The notes under the pieces are model-generated. The model was not told where the DNA came from and searched no databases. It was given only the letters and a program-made list of their open reading frames with translations. A program made the position numbers and the translations under genes. A DNA stretch of 64,000 nt from Escherichia coli (GTDB lineage Bacteria > Pseudomonadota > Gammaproteobacteria > Enterobacterales > Enterobacteriaceae): NCBI RefSeq assembly GCF_046105845.1, contig NZ_CP151004.1; one strand, written 5' to 3'. Below are positions 22,000 through 40,908 of this stretch, piece by piece; position 1 is the first letter of the stretch; every line of letters begins with the position of its first letter.

Positions 22000-22036
22000 A
22001 TTTATTCAAGACGCTTACCTTGTAAGTGCACCCAGT

Positions 22037-22111
22037 TGGGGTATCGCCAAGCGGTAAGGCACCGGATTCTGATTCCGGCATTCCGAGGTTCGAATCCTCG
22101 TACCCCAGCCA
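22037..22111 (+). tRNA. glnX: tRNA-Gln (CUG), second copy
   Basis: Identical sequence to the copy at 21925. Confidence 0.9.
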
Positions 22112-22114
22112 CAT

Positions 22115-22147
22115 TAAAAAAGCTCGCTTCGGCGAGCTTTTTGCTTT
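22115..22147 (+). terminator. Rho-independent terminator of the tRNA operon
   Basis: aaaaaAGCTCGCttcgGCGAGCTttttgctttt. Confidence 0.7.
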
Positions 22148-22159
22148 TCTGCGTATATT

Positions 22160-22262
22160 CAATGTCGAATGCGATGTTGACACGTCTTATCCTTCAAAGT
22201 CGGATGCGACGCTGACGCGTCTTATCCGACCTACAGTTGGCACGCATCCGGCAATGTTGTAA
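22160..22262. repeat. REP-type palindromic units between tRNA operon and ubiF
   Basis: gtcggatgcgacgctgacgcgtcttatccgacctac and ggcacgcatccggcaatg. Confidence 0.5.
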
Positions 22263-22264
22263 GG

Positions 22265-23440
22265 CTACAACCCTAACGCATATTTCAGCGCCTGACGTTT
22301 CAACACGCCAGCACGCTCCGCCGCCATCAAACCAAGATTACGCACAAAACGCAGCGGCGGCAGATTATTACTGAATCCGGCATAAAACAGATCCATACCG
22401 CTCTGCATAATGAAGTTATCCGCCATGCGCCGCATCTGGTAACGCTTGAGGACAGGATAACTGGCCCACGCTTCGCCGTAGCTGCGGGCATTCACCAGAA
22501 CGTCAATCAGGGCATCGACATCACGATAACCAAGATTCACCCCCTGCCCCGCCAGCGGATGGATGGTATGCGCGGCATCGCCCACCAGCGCAAGCCCTGG
22601 CTGCACATACTGCAACGCATGGCGACGCGTCAGCGGAAACGCACCAGCGGCAAGCGGTGTCACGTAACCCAGACGCGACGGGAAATGCTTCGCGATTTCC
22701 GCCTGGAGCTGTGCCATATTCATATTCTGCAACTGGCGAATGCGCGCCGGAGAGTCATACCACACCAGCGATGCCCAGTTATCAAACAACGGCAGAAACG
22801 CACGCGGTCCGTCCGGGGTAAATTGCTGCCAGGTGCTATCGCCGGGATCGTTCTCGCACTGTACGCTAATCAACATACACGACTGTGCATACTGCCAGGC
22901 ATGAACGCCAATTCCCGCCATCTGCCGCACCTGCGAATTTGCGCCGTCGGCACCAATCACCAGCTTCGCGCGGATCGTTTCTCCACCCTTCAGTTCCAGC
23001 TCCTGAAGATCATCATGGCGATGCAGCGCAATCAGCGAGCCTGGCACACGTAACGTTACTTTTGGATGCGCTTCCAGCGCCTGCCACAGCGCCTGTTGCA
23101 GGACGGTGTTTTCCACCATATAGCCAAGCAGCGGCAGCTTAAGTTCAGCGGCGTCAAACACCACATGCGCCGTTTCCCACTCCCACGTTTCCAGTCTGCG
23201 GTAAGGATGGCAACGCATAGCCTGTACTGCATCCCAGACCCCTAACCCTTTAAGCAATGATACCGAAGCCGCACTAATCGCCGAGATCCGCACGTCCGGC
23301 TGGCTGTCAGCGACAAACGGTGCAGGTTGGGCATGTTCGATCACCATTACCGAAAATCCGTGCTGAGCCAGTCCCAGCGCCAGTGCGCCGCCGACCATTC
23401 CTCCGCCGACAATGGCAATTTCCGTTGGTTGATTTGTCAT
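22265..23440 (-). CDS. ubiF: Ubiquinone biosynthesis FAD-dependent hydroxylase UbiF (391 aa)
   Basis: ORF 22265..23446; ATG at 23440 gives MTNQPTEIAIVGGGMVGGALALGL..., GxGxxG FAD motif. Confidence 0.93.
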   Translation of the reverse strand: MTNQPTEIAIVGGGMVGGALALGLAQHGFSVMVIEHAQPAPFVADSQPDVRISAISAASVSLLKGLGVWDAVQAMRCHPYRRLETWEWETAHVVFDAAELKLPLLGYMVENTVLQQALWQALEAHPKVTLRVPGSLIALHRHDDLQELELKGGETIRAKLVIGADGANSQVRQMAGIGVHAWQYAQSCMLISVQCENDPGDSTWQQFTPDGPRAFLPLFDNWASLVWYDSPARIRQLQNMNMAQLQAEIAKHFPSRLGYVTPLAAGAFPLTRRHALQYVQPGLALVGDAAHTIHPLAGQGVNLGYRDVDALIDVLVNARSYGEAWASYPVLKRYQMRRMADNFIMQSGMDLFYAGFSNNLPPLRFVRNLGLMAAERAGVLKRQALKYALGL

Positions 23441-23585
23441 GGTCAATCATCCTGTTAGCAATATGCTTTAAGTTTACAGGATTTTTACCCCCAAGGGCTG
23501 ATAACGCTCATACTGGTCACAACGGCAGCAAAGCATTACACTATGCGCCCTGCATTCCTGGCTACTATTTCGCAAGAGCAAGTCG

Positions 23586-25010
23586 ATGACCAAAAAACTC
23601 CATATTAAAACCTGGGGCTGTCAGATGAACGAGTACGATTCATCGAAGATGGCCGATCTGCTGGATGCCACCCACGGCTATCAACTGACCGACGTGGCGG
23701 AAGAAGCGGATGTGCTGCTGCTGAACACCTGCTCAATCCGCGAGAAGGCTCAGGAAAAAGTCTTCCATCAGTTGGGTCGCTGGAAACTGTTAAAAGAGAA
23801 GAATCCAGACCTGATTATCGGTGTCGGCGGCTGCGTGGCATCGCAGGAAGGCGAGCACATTCGCCAGCGCGCCCACTATGTCGATATTATTTTTGGGCCG
23901 CAAACGCTGCACCGCCTGCCGGAGATGATCAACTCCGTGCGCGGCGACCGCAGCCCGGTTGTAGATATCAGCTTCCCGGAAATCGAGAAGTTTGACCGTC
24001 TGCCGGAACCGCGCGCCGAAGGGCCGACCGCGTTTGTCTCCATCATGGAAGGCTGCAATAAATATTGCACCTACTGCGTGGTACCTTACACCCGTGGTGA
24101 AGAGGTAAGCCGTCCGTCCGACGATATTCTGTTTGAGATTGCCCAGCTTGCGGCTCAGGGCGTGCGTGAAGTCAACCTGCTCGGTCAGAACGTGAACGCC
24201 TGGCGTGGTGAAAACTACGACGGCACCACCGGAACGTTTGCCGATCTGCTGCGTCTGGTTGCGGCGATCGACGGGATCGATCGTATTCGCTTTACCACCA
24301 GCCATCCGATCGAATTCACCGACGATATCATCGAAGTGTACCGCGACACGCCGGAGCTGGTGAGCTTCCTGCACCTGCCGGTACAGAGCGGTTCCGATCG
24401 CATTCTGAACCTGATGGGCCGTACTCATACGGCGCTGGAGTATAAAGCGATCATCCGTAAACTGCGTGCGGCGCGTCCGGATATTCAGATCAGTTCTGAC
24501 TTCATTGTTGGCTTCCCTGGCGAAACCACCGAAGACTTCGAGAAAACGATGAAGCTGATTGCCGACGTCAATTTCGACATGAGCTACAGCTTTATCTTCT
24601 CTGCACGTCCGGGTACACCAGCCGCCGATATGGTTGATGATGTTCCGGAAGAAGAGAAGAAGCAGCGTCTGTATATTCTGCAAGAACGTATCAATCAGCA
24701 AGCGATGGCATGGAGCCGCCGGATGCTCGGCACCACCCAGCGTATTCTGGTAGAAGGGACTTCGCGTAAGAGCATCATGGAGCTTTCCGGGCGTACCGAA
24801 AATAACCGCGTGGTCAACTTCGAGGGCACACCGGATATGATCGGTAAATTCGTCGATGTAGAAATTACCGACGTCTACCCGAACTCTCTGCGCGGTAAAG
24901 TGGTGCGTACTGAAGATGAAATGGGGCTGCGCGTGGCAGAAACACCAGAATCGGTCATTGCCCGTACCCGCAAAGAAAACGACCTTGGCGTGGGTTATTA
25001 TCAGCCGTAA
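23586..25010 (+). CDS. miaB: tRNA-i6A37 methylthiotransferase MiaB (474 aa)
   Basis: [29 protein letters not shown]..., radical-SAM CxxxCxxC (CNKYCTYC), TRAM domain. Confidence 0.95.
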
Positions 25011-25014
25011 TTCT

Positions 25015-25046
25015 CAGGCCCGCCGTTCCGGTGGGCCTTGTTTTTT
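25015..25046 (+). terminator. Stem-loop with T-run downstream of miaB (possible intra-operon attenuator)
   Basis: aGGCCCgccgttccggtGGGCCttgtttttt. Confidence 0.4.
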
Positions 25047-25162
25047 CTCTCTTTATCCCCATCTTTATCGCAATGCTTGCGCCTTTTTCCTGTGGCGTGA
25101 ATAATTTCCTTATAGGCCGGTGAATGTTCAGCTTCCGGCGGCATACAGATAAGAGGAACGGT

Positions 25163-26203
25163 TTGAACATAGACACTCGCGAAATCACCCTGGAGCCAGC
25201 AGACAACGCGCGTCTGTTGAGCCTGTGCGGCCCGTTTGATGACAACATCAAACAACTCGAACGCCGTCTCGGCATCGAAATCAATCGCCGCGATAACCAC
25301 TTTAAACTGACCGGCCGTCCGATTTGCGTCACCGCTGCGGCAGACATTCTGCGTAGCCTGTATGTCGATACTGCCCCGATGCGCGGTCAGATTCAGGATA
25401 TTGAACCGGAACAGATCCACCTTGCGATTAAAGAAGCGCGGGTACTGGAGCAAAGCGCGGAGAGCGTGCCGGAGTACGGCAAAGCGGTCAATATCAAAAC
25501 CAAACGCGGCGTAATCAAGCCGCGCACGCCAAACCAGGCGCAGTACATCGCCAATATTCTCGACCATGACATTACCTTCGGCGTTGGCCCGGCGGGTACG
25601 GGTAAAACCTACCTGGCAGTGGCTGCAGCAGTTGATGCCCTGGAGCGTCAGGAAATTCGCCGTATTCTGCTGACTCGTCCGGCGGTAGAAGCCGGTGAGA
25701 AACTGGGCTTCCTGCCTGGCGATTTAAGCCAGAAAGTAGATCCGTATCTGCGCCCGCTGTACGACGCGCTGTTTGAAATGCTGGGCTTTGAGAAAGTCGA
25801 GAAACTGATTGAGCGCAACGTTATTGAAGTCGCGCCGCTGGCCTATATGCGTGGCCGTACGCTGAACGACGCGTTTATCATTCTCGATGAAAGCCAGAAC
25901 ACCACCATCGAACAGATGAAGATGTTCCTGACCCGTATCGGTTTTAACTCAAAAGCGGTTATCACCGGCGACGTCACGCAGATCGACCTGCCGCGTAATA
26001 CTAAATCAGGCTTACGTCATGCCATCGAAGTGCTGGCTGACGTCGAAGAGATCAGCTTTAACTTCTTCCACAGCGAAGACGTGGTTCGTCACCCGGTGGT
26101 GGCGCGTATCGTTAACGCTTATGAAGCCTGGGAAGAAGCAGAACAAAAACGTAAAGCGGCGCTGGCAGCAGAACGCAAGCGCGAAGAACAGGAACAAAAA
26201 TGA
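25163..26203 (+). CDS. ybeZ: PhoH-like ATPase YbeZ (346 aa), probable TTG start
   Basis: ORF 25124..26203; TTG at 25163 preceded by AAGAGGA gives (M)[18 protein letters not shown]...; Walker A GPAGTGKT. Confidence 0.9.
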
Positions 26204-26667
26204 GTCAGGTGATCCTCGATTTACAACTGGCATGTGAAGATAATTCCGGGTTACCGGAAGAGAGCCAGTTTCAAACATGGCTGAATGCAGTGATCCCGCA
26301 GTTTCAGGAAGAGTCGGAAGTGACTATTCGCGTGGTCGATACCGCCGAAAGCCACAGTCTGAATCTGACCTATCGCGGTAAGGATAAGCCGACCAACGTG
26401 CTCTCCTTCCCGTTTGAAGTGCCGCCTGGCATGGAAATGTCGCTACTGGGCGATCTGGTTATCTGCCGTCAGGTGGTTGAGAAGGAAGCACAGGAGCAAG
26501 GCAAACCACTGGAGGCGCACTGGGCGCATATGGTGGTGCACGGCAGTCTGCATTTGTTAGGTTACGATCACATCGAAGATGACGAAGCAGAAGAAATGGA
26601 AGCCATCGAAACAGAGATTATGCTTGCTCTGGGCTATGAGGATCCGTACATTGCCGAGAAAGAATAA
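26200..26667 (+). CDS. ybeY: Endoribonuclease YbeY, rRNA maturation factor (155 aa)
   Basis: [27 protein letters not shown]..., HGxLHLxGYDH zinc motif. Confidence 0.95.
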
Positions 26668-26756
26668 TTTGCCAGGCATTTGACTGGCAGACGTCCCCGC
26701 CGTTGGTGATTAACGACGGCGTTTTGATTAACTAACATGAGAACCCATACGACGCC

Positions 26757-27635
26757 ATGAGCGACGACAATTCACACAGTAGTGACACGATAAGCAACAA
26801 GAAGGGATTTTTCTCCCTGTTACTCAGCCAACTTTTCCACGGTGAACCGAAAAACCGTGACGAACTGCTGGCGCTGATCCGTGATTCCGGGCAGAACGAC
26901 CTTATCGACGAAGATACGCGCGATATGCTCGAAGGGGTGATGGACATCGCAGACCAACGCGTCCGCGACATCATGATCCCCCGCTCCCAGATGATTACCC
27001 TGAAACGCAACCAGACGCTGGACGAATGCCTTGATGTCATCATCGAGTCCGCCCACTCACGTTTCCCGGTGATTAGCGAAGACAAAGATCACATTGAAGG
27101 GATTCTGATGGCGAAAGACTTGCTGCCGTTTATGCGCAGCGATGCTGAAGCCTTCAGCATGGACAAAGTGTTACGTCAGGCAGTTGTCGTTCCTGAAAGT
27201 AAGCGCGTAGACCGGATGCTGAAAGAGTTTCGCTCTCAGCGTTACCACATGGCGATCGTCATTGACGAATTCGGTGGGGTTTCCGGTCTGGTGACCATTG
27301 AAGACATCCTGGAACTGATTGTTGGTGAGATTGAAGACGAGTATGACGAAGAAGATGATATCGACTTCCGTCAGCTGAGTCGTCATACCTGGACCGTGCG
27401 CGCACTGGCTTCCATTGAAGACTTCAACGAGGCGTTCGGCACCCACTTTAGCGATGAAGAGGTCGACACTATCGGTGGTCTGGTGATGCAGGCATTTGGG
27501 CATCTTCCGGCGCGTGGTGAAACCATCGACATCGACGGTTACCAGTTCAAAGTGGCGATGGCCGACAGTCGGCGTATTATTCAGGTTCATGTCAAAATTC
27601 CGGATGACTCACCCCAGCCAAAGCTGGATGAATAA
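26757..27635 (+). CDS. corC: CorC/YbeX CBS-domain Mg/Co efflux-associated protein (292 aa)
   Basis: [41 protein letters not shown]..., CBS pair plus CorC_HlyC domain. Confidence 0.93.
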
Positions 27636-27659
27636 AACCGAAACTGGATAGATAACTAC

Positions 27660-29201
27660 ATGGCTTTTGCCTCATTAATTGAACGCCAGCGCATTCGCCT
27701 GCTGCTGGCGTTATTATTCGGTGCCTGCGGAACGCTGGCCTTCTCTCCTTACGATGTCTGGCCTGCGGCGATTATTTCGCTGATGGGGCTTCAGGCGCTG
27801 ACCTTTAACCGCCGTCCACTCCAGTCTGCCGCTATTGGCTTTTGCTGGGGATTTGGCCTCTTTGGCAGCGGTATTAACTGGGTCTATGTCAGCATCGCGA
27901 CTTTTGGCGGAATGCCTGGCCCGGTTAACATCTTCCTGGTGGTGCTGCTGGCGGCGTATTTGTCGCTGTATACCGGACTGTTTGCTGGCGTGCTGTCGCG
28001 CCTGTGGCCGAAAACCACCTGGCTGCGCGTGGCGATTGCCGCCCCTGCTCTCTGGCAAGTGACCGAGTTTCTGCGCGGTTGGGTGCTGACTGGTTTCCCG
28101 TGGTTACAGTTCGGCTATAGCCAGATTGATGGCCCGTTAAAAGGGCTGGCACCAATAATGGGCGTGGAAGCCATTAACTTCCTGCTAATGATGGTTAGCG
28201 GCCTGCTGGCACTGGCGTTGGTCAAACGCAACTGGCGTCCGCTGGCGGTGGCCGTCGTGCTGTTCGCCCTTCCCTTCCCGCTGCGTTACATCCAGTGGTT
28301 TACCCCGCAACCGGAGAAAACCATTCAGGTTTCGATGGTTCAGGGCGATATTCCGCAATCACTGAAATGGGACGGAGACCAGCTTCTTAATACGCTGAAG
28401 ATTTACTACAACGCAACGGCACCGCTGATGGGCAAATCATCGTTGATTATCTGGCCGGAGTCGGCGATAACCGATCTGGAAATTAATCAGCAACCGTTCC
28501 TCAAAGCACTGGACGGTGAGTTGCGCGATAAAGGTAGCTCGCTGGTAACCGGGATTGTTGACGCGCGTCTCAATAAGCAGAACCGCTACGATACTTACAA
28601 CACCATCATCACGCTGGGGAAAGGTGCGCCGTACAGCTACGAATCAGCCGATCGCTATAACAAAAACCATCTGGTGCCGTTTGGCGAGTTTGTCCCGCTG
28701 GAGTCGATTCTGCGTCCGTTAGCGCCGTTCTTTGATCTGCCGATGTCGTCGTTCAGCCGTGGGCCATATATCCAGCCACCGCTGTCGGTAAACGGTATTG
28801 AGCTTACTGCGGCTATTTGCTACGAGATCATTCTCGGCGAGCAAGTGCGTGATAACTTCCGCCCGGATACCGATTATCTGCTGACTATCTCCAACGATGC
28901 ATGGTTTGGTAAGTCTATTGGTCCATGGCAGCACTTCCAGATGGCGCGAATGCGTGCGCTGGAGTTGGCGCGCCCGCTACTGCGTAGCACCAACAACGGC
29001 ATTACGGCGGTGATTGGTCCGCAGGGTGAGATTCAGGCGATGATCCCGCAATTCACCCGCGAGGTGTTAACCACTAACGTGACGCCGACTACCGGACTTA
29101 CACCGTACGCACGTACCGGCAACTGGCCTCTGTGGGTGCTGACGGCACTGTTTGGTTTTGCTGCTGTGCTGATGAGTCTGCGTCAGCGACGTAAACGTTG
29201 A
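27660..29201 (+). CDS. lnt: Apolipoprotein N-acyltransferase Lnt (about 512 aa)
   Basis: [37 protein letters not shown]..., multi-TM N-terminus, CN-hydrolase domain. Confidence 0.95.
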
Positions 29202-29214
29202 GGTGAATGATGCG

Positions 29215-29249
29215 CTGGCCTGCAAAATTGCATCATTTTTGCAGGCCAG
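29215..29249. repeat. Perfect 13-bp inverted repeat just downstream of lnt
   Basis: CTGGCCTGCAAAA-ttgcatca-TTTTGCAGGCCAG; no U-tract on either strand. Confidence 0.6.
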
Positions 29250-29304
29250 ATAAACCGTTAACACCGCATCCGGTATCAACAAAACATACTTTCTCATTAA
29301 GCGG

Positions 29305-29332
29305 TGGGGCGTGATTATCATGCCCCTTTTTT
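29305..29332 (+). terminator. Rho-independent terminator (plus-strand orientation) abutting the stop of the minus-strand rhomboid gene
   Basis: GGGGCgtgattatcatGCCCCtttttt. Confidence 0.55.
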
Positions 29333-29333
29333 C

Positions 29334-31211
29334 TTACGGTTCAGGGATACAAGCCACATTGCCATATTGGGGATGACGAATAATTGCCTGCGGATCAAGC
29401 GAGCGCGTCCTGTCCAGTTGGATTAACCCGTTCTTCGCCATAACAAATATTTTTCTACCATCCGCTGAAAAACGAAGGTGATTAACGTAGCTGGCAGGAT
29501 AAACGCCAATAATCTGCCCGGCATTAATATTGAGCTGGATGACATAACCTTGCAGGCCATATGACACCAACGCTAAATATTGACCGTCCGGGCTAATACC
29601 CTCAACGGAATAAACGCTCCTGCTACACCATTGCGTCATAATACTGGCTTGTTGATCCTCAGCTCTTATACGTGAAATCCCCTGGCTATCGGCAAAAATA
29701 ATCTCTCCATTTTTTGGTCGGAATCCCATCGCAGAAACGACACCACGCGCATCACCTGCGGGAAAGTCTTCTTTCTGATGCGTGATGGTATTGATGCGTA
29801 CAATGTCACCTCTGACCATACCGGGTATCAACAATGTTTTTTCATCCGGGGAAAGTGCCATAACCCAGGCACCAGGTTTATTACTCGTCCCCGTCCCGTC
29901 GTATTTCTCCAGCGGGATATCCGCCACATGCTGATAAGTCACCAGATCAATGGCTGACACACTATTACTGGTGCGATTCATCACCCAAGCTTTTGTGCCA
30001 TCACGCGAGAGGATAAGACTGTCAGGATGTGCACCGGTGGTAATCGACTGAATAATCTCCCCCGTCGCCACGTTAATGACCGATAACGCATTCGCTTCAA
30101 ATGAAGTCGCATAAAGCAACGTTTCATCCGGGCTTAGCGCCAGCGATCTGACGCCCTGATCTTTACAGCCACCACAATGTTTGACTGACTTTTCTTTCGC
30201 TATGGGGGCTGTAAAGGTATGCAGGATTTTCTTTTGTCCGAGGTCGAAAACAACAATGCTGTTGGTGTTTTCAATTGCGGCATACAACGTATTACCATCC
30301 CGACTGATCGCCATATCATGGATATCGGAAATCTCAGCGAGCAAATCACCACTGGCCTGTTCACGACTTACCGGAGCGGATAATGTTTCCCTGAGGGCGT
30401 TGCGTTCCTCCGCTAACTGCTGCTTTTTTTGCCGTCGCTCTTGTTCAATCTCCTGTGGATAAAACTCTTCACGCAGGCTTTGCCTGACTTGTAAAACTGA
30501 CTCACCCATCTGCTGCTGCGCAAGCCAGATAGCCCCGGTCAGAAGAAGACTACCCGCAACAATAATCCCGCCTTCCGTAACAAGCCGGTTTTGCCCATAT
30601 AAACGCGCACTCAGCCCCCCCATCGCGCCACCCGCAATCAGGCCGCCAATGTGGCAAGCGTTATCTATTCCTGTTTGCCGGGCACCGTACAACAGTGTCA
30701 GCGCCACCATACCCAGCAGAGGAAATACTCGCCGCTGGTTTTTATGGTGTGTGCCCGCACCTGAAGCAAGCTGTGTTGCTATCGCAGCGCCAGCTATTCC
30801 CATAATCGCCCCGGATGCCCCAACGCTGATGACTATCTGCTCACTTTCGCGTAACGCATAACAGGCACTGATTAGCCCACCAAAGACGCCGGAGAATAAC
30901 CAGATAATCAGAAGTCGCCATTTCCCCAGTATCCGCTCCGCCACTGCCCCCACCACCAGAAGTGCAAACATATTCATCAGCAAATGGGGAAAACTACTGT
31001 GCAGAAAGACACTGCTCAATAAGCGCCAGGATTCGCCCGACAACGTGAGAGAAGTAACGTTAGCACCGAGATGGATGAGTGCGGATTGATCGACTTCTTC
31101 ATAACTCATCCATTGTGCGAGGTAACAAAATATCCCAACACAGAGCGCAAAAAGGATAAGGGTTATTGCGGGTAATTGAACATTTAACGGCTTAACCGAA
31201 GATGCAGACAT
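29334..31211 (-). CDS. Rhomboid-family intramembrane serine protease (7 TM) fused via a charged linker to a C-terminal YVTN/YncE-like beta-propeller (625 aa); not a gene I recognise from E. coli K-12
   Basis: Single 625-codon ORF. N-terminal residues 1-235: rhomboid motifs WR (62-63), HxxxN (H76, N80), GASG with catalytic Ser133, ACHIGG with His187, plus seventh hydrophobic helix 216-232. Residues 240-285 charged (EEFYPQEIEQERRQKKQQLAEERNALRE). Residues 286-625: about seven repeats of [LI]S[PR]DG..[LI]...N......[IV]D-type beta-strand blades. Confidence 0.85.
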   Translation of the reverse strand: MSASSVKPLNVQLPAITLILFALCVGIFCYLAQWMSYEEVDQSALIHLGANVTSLTLSGESWRLLSSVFLHSSFPHLLMNMFALLVVGAVAERILGKWRLLIIWLFSGVFGGLISACYALRESEQIVISVGASGAIMGIAGAAIATQLASGAGTHHKNQRRVFPLLGMVALTLLYGARQTGIDNACHIGGLIAGGAMGGLSARLYGQNRLVTEGGIIVAGSLLLTGAIWLAQQQMGESVLQVRQSLREEFYPQEIEQERRQKKQQLAEERNALRETLSAPVSREQASGDLLAEISDIHDMAISRDGNTLYAAIENTNSIVVFDLGQKKILHTFTAPIAKEKSVKHCGGCKDQGVRSLALSPDETLLYATSFEANALSVINVATGEIIQSITTGAHPDSLILSRDGTKAWVMNRTSNSVSAIDLVTYQHVADIPLEKYDGTGTSNKPGAWVMALSPDEKTLLIPGMVRGDIVRINTITHQKEDFPAGDARGVVSAMGFRPKNGEIIFADSQGISRIRAEDQQASIMTQWCSRSVYSVEGISPDGQYLALVSYGLQGYVIQLNINAGQIIGVYPASYVNHLRFSADGRKIFVMAKNGLIQLDRTRSLDPQAIIRHPQYGNVACIPEP

Positions 31212-32577: not shown

Positions 32578-32731
32578 CAAGAACCAGGGGCGGAAATTCC
32601 AGCCCTCTCGATTGTTACGTAGCACGGACAGACTATACGCCTGATGGTCGTTCCCCATCGGGCCTGAAAACCGCAATACGCTGGGTAACAATCTTCGAGG
32701 GTAGCAGTTAACGCTGCTACCCTCTTTTTTC
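32578..32731 (+). ncRNA. sroC: SroC sRNA (GcvB sponge) processed from the gltI-gltJ spacer
   Basis: Conserved gltI-gltJ intergenic region ending in terminator GGGTAGCAGttaacGCTGCTACCCtctttttt; position matches the known SroC locus. Confidence 0.6.
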
Positions 32732-39877: not shown

Positions 39878-40908
39878 TGATTCGGTTGTACCCGGAACAA
39901 CTCCGCGCGCAGCTCAATGAAGGGCTGCGCGCGGCGTATCTTTTACTTGGTAACGATCCTCTGTTATTGCAGGAAAGCCAGGACGCTATTCGTCAGGTAG
40001 CTACGGTACAAGGATTCGAAGAACACCACACTTTTTCCATTGATCCCAACACTGACTGGAATGCGATCTTTTCGTTATGCCAGGCCATGAGTCTGTTTGC
40101 CAGTCGACAAACGCTATTGCTGTTGTTACCAGAAAACGGACCGAATGCGGCGATCAATGAACAACTTCTCACACTCACCGGACTTCTGCATGACGACCTG
40201 CTGTTGATCGTCCGCGGTAATAAATTAAGCAAAGCGCAAGAAAATGCCGCCTGGTTTACTGCTCTTGCGAATCGCAGCGTGCAGGTGACCTGTCAGACAC
40301 CGGAGCAGGCTCAGCTTCCCCGCTGGGTTGCTGCGCGCGCAAAACAGCTCAACTTAGAACTGGATGACGCGGCGAATCAGGTGCTCTGCTACTGTTATGA
40401 AGGTAACCTGCTGGCGCTGGCTCAGGCACTGGAGCGTTTATCGCTACTCTGGCCAGACGGCAAACTGACATTACCTCGCGTTGAACAGGCGGTGAATGAT
40501 GCCGCGCATTTCACCCCTTTTCATTGGGTTGATGCTTTGTTGATGGGAAAAAGTAAGCGCGCGTTGCATATTCTTCAGCAACTGCGTCTGGAAGGCAGCG
40601 AACCGGTTATTTTGTTGCGCACATTACAACGTGAACTGTTGTTACTGGTTAACCTGAAACGCCAGTCTGCCCATACGCCACTGCGTGCGTTGTTTGATAA
40701 GCATCGGGTATGGCAGAACCGCCGGGGCATGCTGGGCGAGGCGTTAAATCGCTTAAGCCAGCCGCAGTTACGTCAGGCCGTGCAACTCCTGACACGAACG
40801 GAACTCACCCTCAAACAAGATTACGGTCAGTCAGTGTGGGCAGAGCTGGAAGGGTTATCTCTTCTGTTATGCCATAAACCCCTGGCGGACGTATTTATCG
40901 ACGGTTGA
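39877..40908 (+). CDS. holA: DNA polymerase III delta subunit HolA (343 aa)
   Basis: [43 protein letters not shown]... Confidence 0.95.

Follow-up and report, generated by a model that had tools for sequence, protein, structure and literature searches.

A precedent for a terminator lying between genes of a co-oriented string is the rpsU-dnaG-rpoD operon, which carries an internal terminator, T1, and an internal sigma-32 promoter, Phs, and in which expression of dnaG depends on read-through of T1. Heat-shock promoters of the groE and dnaK type offer a second point of comparison, with the consensus CCCTTGAA-N13-15-CCCCATnT; in its shorter form the sigma-32 consensus reportedly reads CTTGAAA / CCCCATnT. 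The DNA analyzed here is a 64,000-nucleotide (nt) stretch of Escherichia coli (RefSeq assembly GCF_046105845.1, contig NZ_CP151004.1), referred to below as the window. A preliminary description of the window had placed a terminator-like hairpin inside a miaB-ybeZ-ybeY-corC-lnt gene string and had read it as a site of partial termination or attenuation that sets a lower expression level for the genes behind it. We arrive at a different reading, to which we assign a probability of roughly 85%: the hairpin and T-tract at 25016-25046 form an intrinsic terminator that ends miaB as a single-gene transcript, and ybeZ-ybeY-corC-lnt is promoted separately.

The miaB coding sequence occupies 23586-25010 on the plus strand (474 aa, ending in TAA at 25008-25010), as indicated by a match to NCBIfam TIGR01574 MiaB (738.9 bits), the open reading frame (ORF) list and the E. 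coli annotation. It is followed on the same strand by ybeZ (PhoH family; 25163-26203), which is the first gene of the downstream operon, and then by ybeY (26200-26667), corC/ybeX (26757-27635) and lnt (27660-29201). Family matches and the ORF list bear out all five gene names given in the preliminary description. Its statement that the genes are closely spaced applies from ybeZ onward, where ybeZ and ybeY overlap by 4 nt and corC and lnt are separated by 24 nt, but not to miaB and ybeZ, which lie 152 nt apart. Beyond lnt we noted a 9-bp hairpin followed by TTTTTT at 29306-29326 (plus strand) and an ORF on the minus strand at 29334-31211 (625 aa) with a rhomboid-protease-like N-terminal part and beta-propeller repeats. 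In MG1655 the equivalent position is taken by an IS5, and the spot beyond lnt is thus strain variable.

The width of the miaB-ybeZ gap follows from the start of ybeZ, which is a conserved TTG at 25163-25165 preceded by the Shine-Dalgarno sequence AAGAGGA at 25151-25157, in agreement with the MG1655 annotation (b0660, 346 aa). The ORF list instead begins ybeZ at an ATG at 25124 (359 aa), which we regard as an over-extension, since the TTG is conserved, follows the Shine-Dalgarno sequence and is the start annotated in MG1655. Both AGGA and GTTTGAA at the ybeZ start are invariant in an alignment of 24 intergenic regions from Enterobacteriaceae and Erwiniaceae. In every Enterobacterales locus whose alignment reaches residue 1 (about 48), TTG is the ybeZ start and comes after the conserved AAGAGGA. 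Such an invariant non-ATG start suggests that translation initiation of ybeZ may be deliberately limited or regulated. A structured 5' untranslated region (UTR) of ybeZ was considered and set aside, as 25112-25180 folds no better than its shuffles (z = -0.23).

This junction is highly uniform within the species. The 401 nt spanning it (24900-25300), with miaB and ybeZ annotated, are found at 95% identity or more (95 to 99.3%) in 5,424 of 5,426 complete E. coli genomes, and the miaB-ybeZ intergenic region differs from that of MG1655 at 2 of 152 positions. Within the hairpin, the stem pair C25021-G25033 of the window is U-G in K-12, and pairing is kept. Because the two intergenic regions are nearly identical, experimental data from K-12 can be transferred almost base for base. 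All data on the miaB 3' end and on the ybeZ transcription start sites (TSSs) given below are from K-12; window positions were obtained by coordinate conversion and checked on the sequence.

The hairpin begins 5 nt past the miaB stop codon, at 25016-25038, and has the sequence AGGCCCGCCG-TTC-CGGTGGGCCT. Its 5' arm (25016-25025) and 3' arm (25029-25038) form 10 pairs, 8 of them G-C, around a 3-nt loop (TTC, 25026-25028), and the T-tract TTGTTTTTT at 25038-25046, 8 of whose 9 bases are T, supplies the U-tract of the terminator. Its predicted folding energy of -19.7 kcal/mol (z = -5.2) was not reached by any of 200 shuffled sequences. The hairpin persists when folded in a 120-nt context, in which no competing structure appears, and it ranks first among terminator-like sites in 22000-31000. 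A strict scan of both strands of the 64-kb window (stem of at least 9 pairs, at least 7 of them G-C, and at least 6 T in 8) returned three sites, at 25016, 32697 and 39903, against a mean of 0.07 in dinucleotide shuffles. The other two, both on the plus strand, have 12 pairs followed by TTTTTT (32697-32724) and 13 pairs, 11 of them G-C, followed by a weaker tail (39903-39934). The hairpin sequence at 25016 occurs once in the window, even when 3 mismatches are allowed. Searched against Rfam at a permissive threshold, the site gave no family above threshold and no leader or riboswitch; a suhB/mmgR match over the hairpin was sub-threshold (19.5 bits versus 41; E = 0.15) and was treated as chance. 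The terminator-like hairpin reported directly after miaB is therefore confirmed by anatomy, fold and scan alike.

To this the K-12 data add an RNA 3' end. The curated Term-seq set of Adams et al. (2021, eLife; PMC7815308, supplementary file 1) contains a 3' end at NC_000913.3 693499(-), classed as "primary, miaB," and the flanking sequence given for it is the same hairpin and T-tract. With the K-12 miaB stop codon ending at 693531, this position converts to 25042 in the window, which lies within the T-tract, 4 nt past the stem. The end is curated in one of three conditions, being found in the LB OD 0.4 sheet (PMC7815308). The table of Rho termination regions from the same study (PMC7815308) includes neither miaB nor ybeZ, which lends weak support to a Rho-independent mechanism. 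No measurement of the efficiency or read-through of the miaB terminator was found in the accessible literature; the G that interrupts the T-tract at its third base means that termination could be incomplete. Canonical anatomy, covariation (below) and, for the K-12 orthologue, a 3' end inside the tract together uphold the preliminary view of this element as a terminator.

A scan of species-representative genomes with a back-translated conserved YbeZ peptide (10 residues) gave 120 gammaproteobacterial loci, or 121 with MG1655. Eighteen Enterobacteriaceae sequences, the window included, have a hairpin at the same position, 6 to 9 nt past the stop codon of miaB, and 8 of 9 stem pairs are intact in all 18. 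Compensatory double changes occur at three stem pairs (GC/AU, UA/CG and GC/AU), and 91% of the cells in the alignment are paired, compared with 17 to 57% when the 3' partner columns are slid by 1 to 3 positions. The compensatory changes indicate selection on structure and not on sequence alone. In Shimwellia, Siccibacter, Cedecea, Erwinia and two genomes labelled Enterobacter, the CTTG box is not joined to a hairpin; different hairpins are found further upstream.

The CTTG box belongs to the first of two promoters that lie between the hairpin and ybeZ. Narrow regular expressions matched the two promoters in 16 and 10 of 96 intergenic regions and missed variants such as ACCCAAAT and GAATAAT, and we therefore assessed promoter conservation from the alignment of 24 Enterobacteriaceae and Erwiniaceae intergenic regions. 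Amid divergent sequence, several blocks are invariant in 24 of 24: CTTG at 25037-25040, CC..A..T within CCCCATCT at 25057-25064, TTG.G at 25077-25081, AATA.T at 25100-25105, and the Shine-Dalgarno sequence with the TTG start. The first two blocks fall in a sigma-32-type promoter at 25037-25064 (plus strand), with a -35 element CTTGTTT (25037-25043), a 13-nt spacer and a -10 element CCCCATCT (25057-25064). The next two fall in a sigma-70/sigma-S-type promoter at 25077-25105 (plus strand), with a -35 element TTGCGC (25077-25082), a 17-nt spacer and a -10 element AATAAT (25100-25105).

Each of these promoters is matched by a mapped K-12 start. The minor TSS, U00096.2 692692(-), with 9 reads and assigned to sigma D/S/H, converts to 25072, an A located 8 nt after CCCCATCT; the major TSS, 692652(-), with 206 reads and assigned to sigma D/S, converts to 25112, an A located 7 nt after AATAAT and 40 nt beyond the minor TSS, which gives a 5' UTR of 51 nt. 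Both are placed in the unit "ybeZ;ybeY;ybeX;lnt" by Cho et al. (2014, BMC Biol; PMC3923258, supplementary file 7), whereas the miaB TSS at 694214 (35 reads) is placed in a unit consisting of miaB only (PMC3923258). With the same coordinate offset, the miaB TSS falls 7 to 8 nt after a plausible -10 box. Regarding the sigma factors, ybeZYX is cited, after Nonaka 2006, as a member of the sigma-32 regulon, and the K-12 sigma-32 ChIP-chip signal at ybeZ is 2.5; the accompanying ChIP-chip "genomic position," 692735 (window 25029), does not denote a TSS and was not treated as such. The ybeZ-miaB spacer also contains an RpoS genomic-SELEX peak, at 692668, which converts to 25096 in the window. In Salmonella, a promoter has been reported upstream of ybeZ, as has another TSS between ybeY and corC. 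In its elements, spacing, TSS distance and K-12 occupancy, 25037-25064 qualifies as a sigma-32 promoter.

Taken together, these data suggest the following sequence of events. RNA polymerase arriving from the miaB promoter would transcribe the GC-rich inverted repeat, the nascent hairpin would form at the moment when the active site holds the weak rU:dA hybrid made over the T-tract, and the miaB transcript would be released around 25042. Transcription of ybeZ-ybeY-corC-lnt would then start anew from the two promoters just downstream. Placed in this way, the terminator may also keep incoming polymerases off the two ybeZ promoters and uncouple their heat-shock control from miaB. With miaB ended and the promoters shielded, expression of the downstream operon would depend on housekeeping and heat-shock control of its own and not on miaB.

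The strongest competitor to a terminator of a monocistronic miaB is the proposal of the preliminary description, in which miaB, ybeZ, ybeY, corC and lnt form a single operon and a leaky terminator, or attenuator, passes a fixed fraction of polymerases and so sets a lower downstream expression level. We consider this unlikely. The genes are indeed co-oriented, the third base of the T-tract is G, and miaB lies directly upstream of ybeZ on one strand in 115 of the 121 gammaproteobacterial loci. The comparison across groups also gives the impression of an ancestral operon. Counting a strong hairpin as one with at least 7 bp, at least 4 of them G-C, and a T-tract in the miaB-ybeZ gap, we found it in 17 of 24 Enterobacteriaceae (gap, 95 to 244 nt), 17 of 24 other Enterobacterales (178 to 2,795 nt) and 11 of 13 Shewanellaceae (109 to 230 nt). 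The corresponding counts are 3 of 31 in Vibrionaceae (57 to 171 nt), 1 of 6 in Aeromonadales (58 to 62 nt), 0 of 3 in Morganellaceae (33 to 46 nt) and 0 of 13 in Alteromonadales (17 to 33 nt). Where the gap is short (17 to 46 nt) and holds no terminator, as in Alteromonadales and Morganellaceae, miaB and ybeZ are probably cotranscribed, and the miaB-to-lnt string looks like an old operon that was split in the lineage of the window. In Enterobacteriaceae, other Enterobacterales and Shewanella, a terminator separates the two genes. Gap length itself runs from 17 nt in Alteromonas to 668 nt in Serratia, with an outlier of 2,795 nt in Budvicia diplopodorum; inserted elements may be present in the very long gaps of these last two genera.

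Several observations weigh against attenuation within one miaB-to-lnt unit in E. coli. An attenuator would be followed by its target gene with no promoter in between, yet two TSSs served by conserved promoters, at 25072 and 25112, separate the hairpin from ybeZ. The preliminary description had itself named an independent ybeZ promoter, along with uniform transcript coverage across the hairpin, as evidence that would count against its proposal, and the two K-12 TSSs between hairpin and ybeZ (Cho 2014) point to such a promoter. The major ybeZ TSS has 206 reads compared with 35 for the miaB TSS, the miaB and ybeZ-ybeY-ybeX-lnt units are given separately (PMC3923258), ybeZYX responds to sigma-32, and the gap measures 152 nt. 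Nor did we find an alternative antiterminator fold, a leader peptide or a ligand- or protein-binding leader at the site; the sequence upstream of the hairpin is the coding region of miaB. Since ybeZ through lnt start from their own promoters behind the hairpin, it probably does not act as an attenuator inside one long operon. Partial read-through of the terminator is possible, though it is not needed to explain downstream expression. A further TSS, 693281(-), lies inside miaB (approximately window 24483; 20 reads; sigma D/S/H) and was assigned to the ybeZ unit by Cho et al. (2014; PMC3923258), an assignment that would require read-through. It looks like bookkeeping by nearest downstream gene rather than evidence; if the TSS is genuine, RNA started there would run into the miaB terminator.

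The gap between ybeY and corC (26668-26756) contains a second terminator-like hairpin, at 26698-26721 on the plus strand, with the sequence CGCCGTTGGTGATTAACGACGGCG, 8 pairs, followed by TTTTGATT. In the excerpt examined from the LB OD 0.4 sheet of Adams et al. (PMC7815308), no Term-seq 3' end stands between the lnt and miaB entries. The idea of an internal attenuator fits this hairpin better than the one after miaB.

A second alternative to termination at the hairpin is that it serves mainly to stabilize a 3' end, with transcription stopping further downstream, for example through Rho, and 3'-to-5' exonucleases trimming the RNA back to the hairpin. Transcripts terminated by Rho are reportedly trimmed back to protective stem-loops, and at 4 nt beyond the stem the mapped end is slightly short for a primary termination point. 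We nevertheless judge this account very improbable: the stem leads into a full T-tract that contains the 3' end, miaB and ybeZ are missing from the Rho-region table (PMC7815308), and the distance of only about 20 nt from the T-tract to the sigma-32 -10 box leaves little untranslated RNA for Rho loading. The last alternative, a chance inverted repeat or a REP/BIME family member with no specific role here, is effectively refuted, for although E. coli intergenic regions often contain REP-like palindromes and a REP/BIME-like insertion occupies exactly this place in Citrobacter youngae, the hairpin outfolds all 200 shuffles (z = -5.2), passes a strict scan for which 0.07 sites are expected per window, occurs in the window as a single copy, keeps its position with compensatory changes, and matches no Rfam family above threshold.

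Returning to the intrinsic terminator of miaB, one feature of its layout deserves separate mention. The last stem base (C) and the T-tract double as the sigma-32 -35 element CTTGTTT, and this fusion of terminator and -35 element is kept in 18 of 18 sequences of the Enterobacteriaceae hairpin alignment. Tract variants in Enterobacter, CTTGTAA and CTTGCAA, carry T-to-A changes that bring them closer to the sigma-32 consensus and make them poorer U-tracts. One could imagine that the fusion is a selected design and not simple compaction, with the strengths of the two elements traded off through their shared bases, or with sigma-32 holoenzyme bound at the promoter, or polymerase released at the terminator, affecting the other process; we think this unlikely. 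The conserved fusion is mildly new and makes a small descriptive addition, and any functional meaning is speculative. In Citrobacter youngae (L121:2623-2887), a REP/BIME-like insertion of roughly 90 nt (GCCCGATGACGCAACGCGTATCGGGCCTAC...GTAGGCCAGATAAGGCGC...GCCGCCATCCGGCA) lies between the miaB stop codon and the CTTG box. The insertion has taken the place of the hairpin's 5' arm, with CTTG...CCCCCATAT and both ybeZ promoters left intact.

The miaB 3' end, both ybeZ TSSs and the sigma-32 control are already known, as all of them are contained in published K-12 datasets. The importance of the present analysis is thus mostly one of correct annotation: in Escherichia, miaB-ybeZ-ybeY-corC-lnt is two transcription units, not one, and ybeZ-ybeY-corC-lnt, which are ribosome-maturation and lipoprotein genes, have housekeeping and heat-shock promoters of their own.

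How does this locus compare with described systems? With REP/BIME elements it shares a GC-rich intergenic palindrome; unlike them, it is single copy and followed by a T-tract, and to our knowledge the hairpin has no resemblance to the REP consensus. With canonical E. coli intrinsic terminators it shares the GC-rich stem, the 3-nt loop, the U-tract, the position after a stop codon, the K-12 3' end and the covariation. Every sequence-level feature of an intrinsic terminator is present, and the in vivo 3' end is present in the K-12 orthologue, which has one stem difference. Nothing essential differs, the particulars here being the G at the third position of the U-tract and the use of the tract DNA as the next -35 element. 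The downstream sigma-32 promoter resembles those of the groE and dnaK type in its arrangement (CCTTGTTT-N13-CCCCATCT), in a TSS 8 nt after the -10 element and in its sigma-32 ChIP signal, and departs from them in a weak -35 element (CTTGTTT versus CTTGAAA) that is fused to the terminator of the upstream gene. As in rpsU-dnaG-rpoD, a terminator lies between genes of a co-oriented string and a heat-shock promoter serves the distal genes. Unlike in that operon, a strong housekeeping promoter and a sigma-32 promoter come directly after the terminator, and miaB is listed as a transcription unit of its own.
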